A stretch of 33,224 bases of DNA, from contig BTVY01000055.1 of assembly GCA_045863335.1 (NCBI GenBank), positions 5,188 to 38,411 of the forward strand. The letters are read 5' to 3'. A model generated the notes under the pieces. It did not search any database. It was not told the DNA's origin and worked only from the letters and a program-made list of their open reading frames with translations. The stretch is from Candidatus Hydrogenedentota bacterium (GTDB lineage Bacteria > Hydrogenedentota > Hydrogenedentia > Hydrogenedentales > SLHB01). Every line of letters begins with the position of its first letter. Positions within the stretch are counted from its first letter, which is position 1. This document shows, piece after piece, positions 7,632 through 9,145 of this stretch. A program made the position numbers and the translations under genes.

Positions 7632-8555
7632 TTACATGTGCATCATGGCCGTGCCGTTCAGCATGTGGTTGGAGCGATGGAACTGGAGGCCGGCCTGGTT
7701 CAGGGGGAACGGCCCGTCGCCGCCGTTCCAGCCCTGGTATTCGACGTGGCCGTCCAGATAAAGGACGTTCGCGCCGCCGGGCACGTGGTTGAACATGGAC
7801 GCGCCCATGGCGATGGCGTCCCACATGATCGCCAACTCGGACTGGGCGACGGCGCTGCCCGCGGGGTTGTTGATGTCGGTTACGAAGAACCGTTCGACGC
7901 CTTCCCGGAGACGCAGCGCGGTATCAAATCCATTCACGGGTACGCTGAACTCCCAATCGCTATCCGCGACGCGGATGGCGTCTTCGGTGCTGTGTTCCCA
8001 TTCAGCGGCGAGGGCGTTGATGCTGTTCATGAGCGGCATGGTTGCGCTGAGATCCATCATCCGCTCCGACAAGGCCCAACCAAGATAGGAATAAGGGACC
8101 GCCCCGGTCACTTCGCAGGGTTCCACGATGCCATTGCCGGTGAGCATGGCGCCTTCGGGCGACATCTCCATGTAGTCCTGCATGCCGACGGGGCTGTTGT
8201 TGGGGCGCTGATCCCAGAGGGCGAGGGCGTCTCCGGACTGCATGGTGCTCGGGCAAATCAGCACGTTGAAGTCCGTGAGATACTCCGGAACGATCGTGGC
8301 CACGTTCGCCATCTGGTCGAACAAGACCGGGTCTCCGTTACAGTAGGTGGACCGGATGGGGGGAAGTTTCTGGCCGGGGCTTTCACTCGCGTACATCTTG
8401 AACACGATGCCCATTTGCTTAAGGTTGTTCTGGCACGCGCTGCGGCGGGCGGCTTCGCGAGCACGCGCCAGCGAAGGCAGCAGGATTGCGGCCAGTATTC
8501 CAATGATGGCGATGACCACCAGCAATTCGATCAGGGTAAATCCTTTGCGATTCAT
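7632..8555 (-). CDS. DUF1559-type prepilin-like protein (N-terminal methylation site, C-terminal H-X9-DG), Met-rich
   Basis: [24 protein letters not shown] prepilin signal, [18 protein letters not shown], and [17 protein letters not shown] (H-X9-DG family motif). Start at ATG 8555 downstream of GAGGAG; alternative start 8564. Confidence 0.92.
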
Positions 8556-8582
8556 ATACGACATCTCCTCGACGCGCGATTC

Positions 8583-8650
8583 CAAGGGGGGGGACGCGCG
8601 GACAGTTTTAGGGTCCAAGTTAAGGGAAAAGAGAACTAGGGGTGTGGCCG
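8583..8650 (-). promoter_or_regulatory. Putative Rho utilisation (rut)-like C-rich, G-poor tract between the leader ORF and the DUF1559 gene
   Basis: Minus strand reads CGGCCACACCCCTAGTTCTCTTTTCCCTTAACTTGGACCCTAAAACTGTCCGCGCGTCCCCCCCCTTG. Function inferred by analogy. Confidence 0.4.
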
Positions 8651-8737
8651 GATAACGGCGGACGCGTGCGGCCGCGCGTTGGCAACAAACACGTTGCCCA
8701 TTGCGTCTCACATCTGCGCTGCGAATGCCGGTAATGC

Positions 8738-9145
8738 CTAGACTTGGACCGGGGAAGGAGGATCGCGTGCGAGACCGGGGTCCCAGAAGCGGGCAGTATG
8801 AGGCGTCGGAACTTCGAGCCACGCAGGCTCGGTGAGTTGTTCCGCGATGAAGTTCAGCGTAACGGCCGGGGAGGGAGTGACGAATCCCTTGGCCAATTCG
8901 CAAAAGGCGCACTTGGTCGCGGGCGCTTTGCGGGCCGGGGCATTGGTGGAGTTCTGAGGCGGCTGGGCGAGGGAACAGCAGGAATGTGCCGCGGCGACGC
9001 TCGACTGCGCAACGGATTGCTGCGGCGCCTCAACGGCCGCCAGCGTCGCGCACAGTCCAGGGACCAGTGCGCGGCACGAAGCCAGCACGTAAAAGCAGAC
9101 GAGCAGCCGCGCGACAGGGCGCGTCAATGCACGGGAACGAAACAC
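8738..9145 (-). CDS. DUF2946/CruR/CutF-like leader protein with CxxC and a C-terminal RAPP-like (ARDPP) motif
   Basis: GTG start after GAGGAAAC. N-terminal basic plus hydrophobic segment, HSCC, Pro/Ala-rich linker, CAFC (8900-8911), and ARDPP ending five codons before the stop. Confidence 0.75.

Follow-up and report, generated by a model that had tools for sequence, protein, structure and literature searches.

In a stretch of 33,224 nucleotides (nt) from a Candidatus Hydrogenedentota bacterium (assembly GCA_045863335.1, contig BTVY01000055.1, positions 5,188 to 38,411 of the forward strand; hereafter the window), a 135-residue open reading frame (ORF) on the minus strand lies directly upstream of a gene for a prepilin-type DUF1559 protein. 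By analogy with characterized systems, this ORF is on balance probably a cis-acting nascent-chain metal sensor of the CruR/CutF type (DUF2946-like) that controls the DUF1559 gene. We regard it as highly likely that the ORF is an arrest-type regulatory leader, and as fairly likely that this leader responds to metal. Copper specifically, as the sensed metal, has about an even chance, and a Rho-type read-out with repression by metal is a tentative proposal that falls short of one. The leader, the fixed distance between its two key motifs (the "ruler"), its R-x-P-P motif, the target gene and a tail rich in His and Met on the target protein are co-conserved. The unit, with the leader as its first gene and the co-oriented target after a spacer, is laid out as follows.

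9151..9156, minus strand: Shine-Dalgarno (SD)-like GAGGAA of the leader, 5 nt 5′ of its GTG, kept in the same-genus loci L003 and L006
8738..9145, minus strand: leader ORF of 135 residues, from GTG (9145-9143) to TAG (8738-8740), a DUF2946-like candidate arrest-peptide upstream ORF (uORF)
8556..8737, minus strand: untranslated spacer of 182 nt from the leader stop to the DUF1559 start, 41-256 nt in relatives
8565..8570, minus strand: SD sequence GAGGAG of the DUF1559 gene, 9 nt 5′ of the ATG at 8555
7632..8555, minus strand: prepilin-type DUF1559 / H-X9-DG gene for 307 residues, with ATG 8555 as the most likely start

This arrangement had been pointed out in an earlier note made from the letters of the DNA, which described a 135-residue ORF with its own ribosome-binding site, an export-signal-like N-terminus, the motifs HSCC and CAFC, and an RDPP that lies five codons ahead of the stop, followed by a spacer of about 180 nt and a co-oriented DUF1559 gene. 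Each of these elements was found where the note had placed it; the spacer measured 182 nt and the downstream product matched N_methyl, SBP_bac_10 and TIGR04294. The N-terminus of the leader contains four Arg and no acidic residue among its first 13 residues. The motifs that come after it are listed below.

9062..9106, minus strand: hydrophobic segment, residues 14-28 (Kyte-Doolittle mean 2.17), kept in both homologue alignments
8975..8986, minus strand: H54-S-C56-C57, with the CC pair invariant in 31 aligned leaders
8900..8911, minus strand: C79-A-F-C82, a candidate metal-binding CxxC, with C79 and C82 invariant in both alignments
8768..8899, minus strand: the 44-residue ruler from CxxC to R127, constant in length and variable in sequence
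8756..8767, minus strand: R127-D-P-P130, the predicted arrest core, followed by five residues and then TAG

Judging from its composition, the segment of residues 14-28 is a candidate export signal or N-in transmembrane (TM) anchor. The terminal RDPP is of the form R-x-P-P and differs from the literal RAPP of the CruR/CutF-type definition. The layout as a whole exceeds chance expectation: CxxC, a gap of 42 to 46 residues, RxPP and a stop within 0 to 10 further residues were combined in only six of the 49,450 stop-to-stop ORFs of at least 70 residues in all six frames of the whole genome. Three of these six were Arg/Pro-rich off-frame ORFs, and the other three each lay directly 5′ of a DUF1559 gene.

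The sole Pfam match of the leader was DUF2946 (PF11162), at E 0.0042 and over profile positions 3-117 of 117. The membership in this family that the earlier note had proposed to check is thus upheld in part, in that no other family matched and nearly the whole profile aligned; the score of 18.3 bits, however, remained below the gathering threshold of 23.7 bits, and we therefore term the leader DUF2946-like rather than a certified member. DUF2946 was also matched at E ≤ 0.01 by 16 of 31 leaders from relatives (best E 2.1e-5), and the genome encodes a paralogous leader (contig C38, locus L032) that passed the threshold with 24.2 bits. The alignment of this paralogue with the clade profile spanned the region from CxxC to RxPP (hhalign E 7.2e-5, probability 63%). 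Of the 13 homologues returned by a word-indexed search with the leader, one carried a precomputed PF11162 label and some had Candidatus Hydrogenedentes as their source name, and a word-indexed profile search gave 38 matches, whose only source names were Candidatus Hydrogenedentes or Hydrogenedentota. Within the phylum, matches at E ≤ 0.01 occurred in 37 of 135 genomes (25 of 86 among those of high quality). They were distributed over four taxonomic families (f1, 15 of 53 genomes; f7, 6 of 14; f10, 14 of 15; f5, 1 of 1), and at the same cut-off all other families of the phylum had none (e.g., f3, 0 of 23; f8, 0 of 10).

A profile built from 31 leaders retrieved 179 clusters at E ≤ 0.001 (144 at E ≤ 1e-10) from 1.84 billion representative proteins, in a search that returned no source names. 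In the alignment of the 31 leaders, mean column identity was 33%, with C56, C57, C79, C82, R127, P129 and P130 invariant. The block between CxxC and R was free of gaps and variable in sequence; the signal-like N-terminus, C32 and a PGLCAT segment were also conserved. A terminal R-x-P-P was present in 172 of the 179 family proteins, as RAPP in 93, RGPP in 38, RDPP in 37 and RSPP in four, and five of the seven proteins lacking it were shorter than 100 residues or ended before the CxxC-RxPP block was complete. The suggestion of the earlier note that RDPP is a variant of the RAPP-like motif is thereby substantiated (37 RDPP vs 93 RAPP). From the sequences, RDPP appears as a natural variant, one of four interchangeable cores with RAPP as the majority form; among the retrieved loci it was found mainly in the window's own taxonomic family. 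Between R-x-P-P and the stop there were 28 residues in one of the 172 proteins and 1-10 in the other 171. CxxC (CAFC in 94, CALC in 41, CPFC in 20, and others) was likewise present in 171 of the 172, one protein being without it, and so was the CC pair in 171 of them. The gap from CxxC to R, determined in 171 family proteins, was 44 residues in 156, 43 in eight and 45 in seven, and it was 44 residues in 33 of the 34 leaders of the retrieved loci.

At one same-genus locus (L005, on G106:C8) the leader frame was broken in its N-terminal part, with two overlapping partial ORFs, one TGA inside the match and a spacer of 256 nt. Possible causes are a fault in the assembly and decay of the leader.

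Altogether 31 related loci were retrieved, 29 of them with a complete leader. In 27 of these 29, the next same-strand gene that was not itself a leader encoded a prepilin/DUF1559 protein. One of the two exceptions (L011) had only about 360 nt of 3′ DNA in the retrieved sequence. In the other (L024:2113-3363(+)), a RAPP leader was followed by an unrelated ORF of at least 417 residues with a signal-like N-terminus and His/Glu-rich stretches, for which there was no Pfam match. The co-conservation on which the earlier note had staked its proposal was thus borne out, as CxxC, R-x-P-P, their spacing and a DUF1559 gene in the next position are all kept in relatives. In four loci (L009, L015, L023 and L031), tandem leaders, each with the CxxC-44-RxPP arrangement, stood before a single DUF1559 gene, with the second leader 41-77 nt from the target; such tandems might provide two-input or graded control. 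One locus contained two successive leader-target pairs. The window genome itself has three leader-DUF1559 pairs, on contigs C55 (the window), C19 and C38, and the three leader-paired DUF1559 proteins are mutual best paralogues (55% and 54% identity). In the third pair, the leader at C38:50595-50858(-), which corresponds to L032:1483-1839(-), precedes a DUF1559 gene at C38:49595-50470 and represents a subtype with His residues in place of CC, followed by CGLC, a 45-residue gap and RGPP.

The target protein matched N_methyl with 37.4 bits (threshold 21.2) and TIGR04294, the H-X9-DG motif, with 21.5 bits (threshold 19). Against SBP_bac_10/DUF1559 it scored 34.7 bits (threshold 23.3) with its N-terminus, only profile positions 2-29 being aligned. 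The following feature lies at its opposite end.

7635..7679, minus strand: His/Met-rich C-terminal tail, a candidate metal-binding segment with three His and four Met in the last 15 residues

Counting His and Met in the last 20 residues gave 7, 5 and 4 for the three leader-paired proteins, which thereby took ranks 1-3 of the 50 prepilin-motif ORFs of the genome, the other 47 having three at most. In the phylum as a whole, at least four His plus Met were present in this stretch in 21 of the 25 orthologues that are complete and leader-associated, the exceptions being one three-member subclade and L031. The tails were of two kinds, mixed Met/His, as in the window protein, and His/Gly. Mixed Met/His tails are typical of Cu(I) sites. 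In the DUF1559 orthologues C41 and C101 were invariant and C72 nearly so. The structural model of the target reached a mean predicted local distance difference test score (pLDDT) of 74.4, with the tail modeled at low confidence. Foldseek retrieved no PDB entry for the model at E ≤ 0.001, and in a wide structural comparison (VIA-align) the best rows were type IV pilins and pseudopilins with weak scores (Z ≤ 4.3). The model thus weakly suggests a fold that is "pilin-like" at most, and no metal site can be read from it. On the strength of its tail, the target may be a metal-binding envelope protein that captures or buffers metal.

Three known classes of arrest peptide offered a comparison. CruR (Bp2923) of Bordetella pertussis is the DUF2946 uORF of the cruR-bfrG-bp2921 operon (Roy et al., mBio 2022, PMC9426467). 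Its family was defined by CXXC, a C-terminal RAPP, a spacing of 45 residues between them (plus or minus one or two), an export signal and the first position in the operon; each of these features except the signal matters for regulation, and altered spacing breaks it (PMC9426467). In this system a stalled ribosome keeps Rho away from the transcript; once copper has relieved the stall, transcription terminates in a 162-bp spacer (PMC9426467). The leader described here resembles CruR in being a small first ORF with a candidate N-terminal export signal, CxxC and R-x-P-P a few residues before the stop, and in its fixed CxxC-to-R spacing (45 in CruR, 44 here). It shares with CruR also a long spacer in GC-rich, C-biased RNA (162 bp in CruR, 182 nt here) in a genome with a Rho gene. 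Unlike CruR with its RAPP, it has an RDPP core, an extra invariant CC pair, a PGLCAT segment and a sub-threshold Pfam score; its host belongs to the Hydrogenedentota and not to the Proteobacteria, and it is known from sequence alone. The targets differ as well: CruR controls a TonB-dependent transporter and a PepSY_TM protein, whereas a prepilin-type DUF1559 protein follows here.

With CutF the leader would share the character of a DUF2946-like exported nascent-chain sensor, with several exported cysteines, a C-terminal proline stall motif and the next gene as its target, CutF acting only in cis. In CutF, periplasmic copper binding prolongs the stall, and a short stem-loop over the next SD is melted (10.1101/2025.02.05.636593). 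CutF differs in having CxxxC, PPP and a dependence on elongation factor P (EF-P), and in that its copper-induced stall melts a short stem-loop over the cutO SD; the spacer here is 182 nt long, and an SD-masking structure appears unsupported at this locus. Like the ApdA/ApdP/SecM class, the leader carries a C-terminal core of the R-A/G-P-P type that would act at the peptidyl-transferase center and control the next gene. Members of that class, unlike the present leader, monitor export, precede sec/yidC genes and have neither CxxC nor a fixed ruler.

The earlier note had taken the pairing of such a leader with a DUF1559 gene to be undescribed, and this claim had to be withdrawn. A survey of RAPP uORFs (EMBO J 2025, PMC12992588) collected small secreted or membrane ORFs with a C-terminal RAPP, and in the source data of its Fig. 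4B "DUF1559 domain-containing protein" is one of 30 enriched downstream classes, with 112 RAPP vs 68 AAPP uORFs, a 6.46-fold enrichment and p 2.67e-34. The pairing is therefore already catalogued, though undiscussed in the text: the main text of PMC12992588 does not mention DUF1559 once, and that paper, with the accessible part of its supplements, reports no link to CxxC spacing or His/Met tails. The survey took RAPP and RGPP only, and RDPP leaders fall outside it (PMC12992588). A "pilin-like signal peptide" class among downstream proteins appears in a figure legend of Ozturk et al. 2023 (PMC9973294), while DUF1559, N_methyl, pilin and Planctomycetes go unmentioned in the accessible supplementary text of Roy et al. 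2022 (PMC9426467). Titles and abstract openings of the DUF1559 literature that we searched contained nothing on copper or metal homeostasis, and searchable texts yielded no work that joins prepilin, arrest peptide and copper. What is new here is accordingly the RDPP subgroup, the exact 44-residue ruler with its invariant CC pair, the presence of three modules in one genome and the association of the leader with His/Met tails.

Published assays bear on the arrest itself. For CruR, in vitro arrest has been reported, with two Pro codons occupying the P and A sites (PMC12992588). RDPP and RSPP were partially arrest-permissive in ApdA/ApdP, and both are among the most avoided tetrapeptides of bacterial proteomes (PMC12992588).

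As regards geometry, the ribosome exit tunnel holds roughly 30-40 residues. Given the fixed distance of 44 residues, CxxC would thus have just emerged from the tunnel when the ribosome arrests. The same geometry was proposed for CruR by Roy et al. (PMC9426467).

We propose the following sequence of events, in which four elements are inferred: that the ribosome stalls at RDPP, which metal is sensed, in which direction expression changes, and that Rho takes part. The N-terminus of the leader would be targeted to the membrane during translation, and the ribosome would tend to stall at R127-D-P-P130 with the two Pro codons in its P and A sites. At the stall, CxxC, 44 residues back, would be at about the tunnel exit, with the invariant CC pair farther out. 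A thiophilic metal, most likely copper, may then bind these thiols and alter the duration of the stall, which in turn would set the expression of the DUF1559 gene 182 nt downstream. In the favored, CruR-type read-out, the stalled ribosome would shield the C-rich spacer from Rho, so that the pilin-like gene is on when metal is scarce; metal would release the stall, and Rho would terminate transcription in the spacer. Our preference for expression under metal scarcity, with a role of the protein in capture, derives from the CruR-like spacer, in which two features are of interest.

8584..8661, minus strand: C-rich, G-poor stretch of 78 nt (35 C, 11 G, C/G 3.18), a rut-like candidate Rho loading site
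8573..8601, minus strand: GC hairpin, C-rich in its loop and immediately 5′ of the SD, in the minimum free energy (MFE) fold, its 3′ arm invariant in four same-genus sequences

A C/G ratio of 3.18 was reached by only 0.07% of all 78-nt windows on both strands of the genome, and the genome encodes Rho (697 bits). The hairpin may serve as a pause site or as part of the SD context.

Several observations weigh against a copper-responsive, CruR-type leader with a Rho read-out. The C-rich stretch is not general: most of 24 spacers of 78-300 nt had a best C/G of 1.1-2.0, and the paralogous locus L002 had 1.33. With the C-bias being weaker in most relatives, the argument for Rho does not extend to the whole family. 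Some relatives have spacers of only 41-77 nt, which are better suited to a translational than to a Rho read-out. The His/Gly or His-only tails of many orthologues would also fit zinc or nickel, and within the window no copper genes and no pilus-machinery genes were found near the unit. As to the family assignment, the leader scores below the PF11162 threshold, and the clade profile reaches no more than 179 clusters and does not arrive at canonical proteobacterial DUF2946 proteins, so that the kinship is distant. In the contexts assayed, arrest at RDPP is weaker than at RAPP or RGPP (PMC12992588), and the support for RDPP is by analogy, coming from other peptides and the ribosomes of other phyla. 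To these points we add the coverage by sequencing: contigs of the RNA-seq library (X4) and the DNA runs had similar depth in all 30 bins of 7300-9500, and since contigs cannot show level, ends or strand, coverage in the RNA library is no evidence for or against attenuation.

The main alternative reverses the logic. As in CutF, metal on exported cysteines would prolong the stall and open a structure that masks the SD, so that an excess of metal induces the gene for detoxification or buffering. The conserved signal-like N-terminus, C32 and the CC pair would fit the periplasmic sensing found in CutF (10.1101/2025.02.05.636593), and several relatives have spacers of 41-77 nt. At the window locus, the RDPP codons are base-paired with the GAGGAG SD in the MFE fold of 8540-8770, but this fold was no better than those of shuffled sequences (z -0.81), and masking of the SD by the RDPP codons was set aside here as the working mechanism and kept only as a rival one. 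The stall site of the window ranked merely at the 28th percentile as an SD partner, and predicted accessibility of the SD was unchanged when the stall site was masked (0.17 vs 0.17). The picture differed in some relatives: in eight of 28 loci, analyzed over leader plus spacer, the best SD partner lay within about 10 nt of the R codon, and in eight of 28 a mask on the stall site raised predicted SD accessibility by more than 0.2, against none of 28 for a control mask. Since eight relatives, mostly with short spacers, have the stall site as their best SD partner and show the masking effect, the family may use both read-outs. Pro-Pro codons, however, resemble the anti-SD through composition alone, and the CCU-CCU codons are not kept in the nearest relative (L003). 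Furthermore, SD pairing of the leader-controlled genes (0.16-0.32) fell inside the spread seen for 41 leaderless paralogues (median 0.30, interquartile range 0.16-0.48), and 182 nt is long for stem-loop melting, which Ozturk et al. argue is limited to short spacers, mostly below 100 nt (PMC9973294). We consider this opposite logic unlikely for the window locus.

Two other explanations do without metal sensing or without arrest. The leader might monitor a non-metal signal, either export or membrane insertion, with force release as in SecM or ApdA, or the capacity of the periplasm to form disulfides. Such a signal would be in keeping with the four cysteines conserved in the DUF1559 protein; in the orthologues, C41 and C101 are invariant and C72 is nearly so. 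It would also agree with RAPP-class leaders that precede sec/yidC and DsbA/thioredoxin genes, some of them with conserved Cys pairs (PMC12992588), and with the CutF model, in which disulfide formation itself gives a pulling force (10.1101/2025.02.05.636593). Yet the only family that the leader resembles consists of the DUF2946 metal sensors, the His/Met-rich tails are confined to the regulated proteins among 50 paralogues, and a pilin-like structural protein is not part of the export or oxidative-folding machinery, which makes such a signal improbable. Alternatively, the 135-residue protein could be a stable, small exported protein that binds metal and serves the DUF1559 protein in trans as partner or chaperone, with RxPP in a structural role. 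Persistent gene pairs can encode interacting proteins, and the N-terminal half with its TM segment, PGLCAT and CC is conserved beyond the bare needs of an arrest peptide. This explanation is very improbable in view of the 44 residues before RxPP, which are constant in number and not in sequence, of the position of RxPP within 10 residues of the stop in all but one of 172 proteins, and of the four loci with tandem leaders before a single target. RxPP is, moreover, among the most avoided tetrapeptides (PMC12992588), and CutF reportedly escapes detection in vivo and has an effect in cis only (PMC9973294).

If the arrest-type metal sensor is accepted, a wider proposal can be formulated for the targets. 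Few protein families have expanded as much as DUF1559 in Planctomycetota and related phyla. The leader-paired subfamily might consist of pilus or envelope subunits that bind metal through the His/Met tail, for capture or buffering of copper or of zinc or nickel, each copy being switched by its own nascent-chain sensor, with three independent modules in one genome; we offer this as a speculative and rather doubtful extension. Should it be true, it would give the first assigned function to any DUF1559 protein and a new output class to leaders of the DUF2946 type. The leader stands before exactly those paralogues of the window genome that have His/Met-rich tails, which turns the proposal into a concrete, testable hypothesis and provides an experimental handle on one DUF1559 subfamily. 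The device known from CruR and CutF would be extended to another phylum, to an RDPP core and to a target that is neither a transporter nor an enzyme. The natural variation in the core (RAPP, RGPP, RDPP and RSPP), in the ruler (43-45) and in the number of leaders (tandems) can be used to study how arrest is tuned by ligands at the tunnel exit.

The unit is flanked on its 5′ side by a divergent gene for a family-2 glycosyltransferase (GT2; 9344-10267, plus strand) and on its 3′ side by a convergent methyltransferase gene (6512-7486, plus strand). A consensus promoter scan gave no minus-strand promoter for the leader, and a consensus terminator scan gave nothing convincing in the spacer. Two inverted repeats lie beyond the DUF1559 gene.

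7586..7625: perfect inverted repeat of 10 bp, directly 3′ of the DUF1559 stop
7498..7572: perfect inverted repeat of 20 bp with a 35-nt loop, followed by a T run on the minus strand, between the DUF1559 gene and the convergent methyltransferase gene

The larger repeat likely marks the end of the two-gene unit, as a terminator shared with the methyltransferase gene; it was missed by the consensus scan because its loop is too long.

Within the coding stretch for the prepilin N-terminus (8484-8557), sequencing depth rose 10- to 100-fold in all four runs. This spike is a mapping artifact, as the stretch is near-identical in many DUF1559 genes and organisms.

Elsewhere in the window, an ORF of 847 residues (3970-6513, minus strand) combines an N-terminal extracytoplasmic function (ECF) sigma factor (Sigma70_r2, r4_2) with five CarboxypepD_reg-like repeats in its long C-terminal part, an unusual sigma fusion. 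A gene for an AsmA/YhdP-like protein of 1162 residues (10893-14381, plus strand) adjoins a gene for a single-domain response regulator (10316-10801, minus strand).

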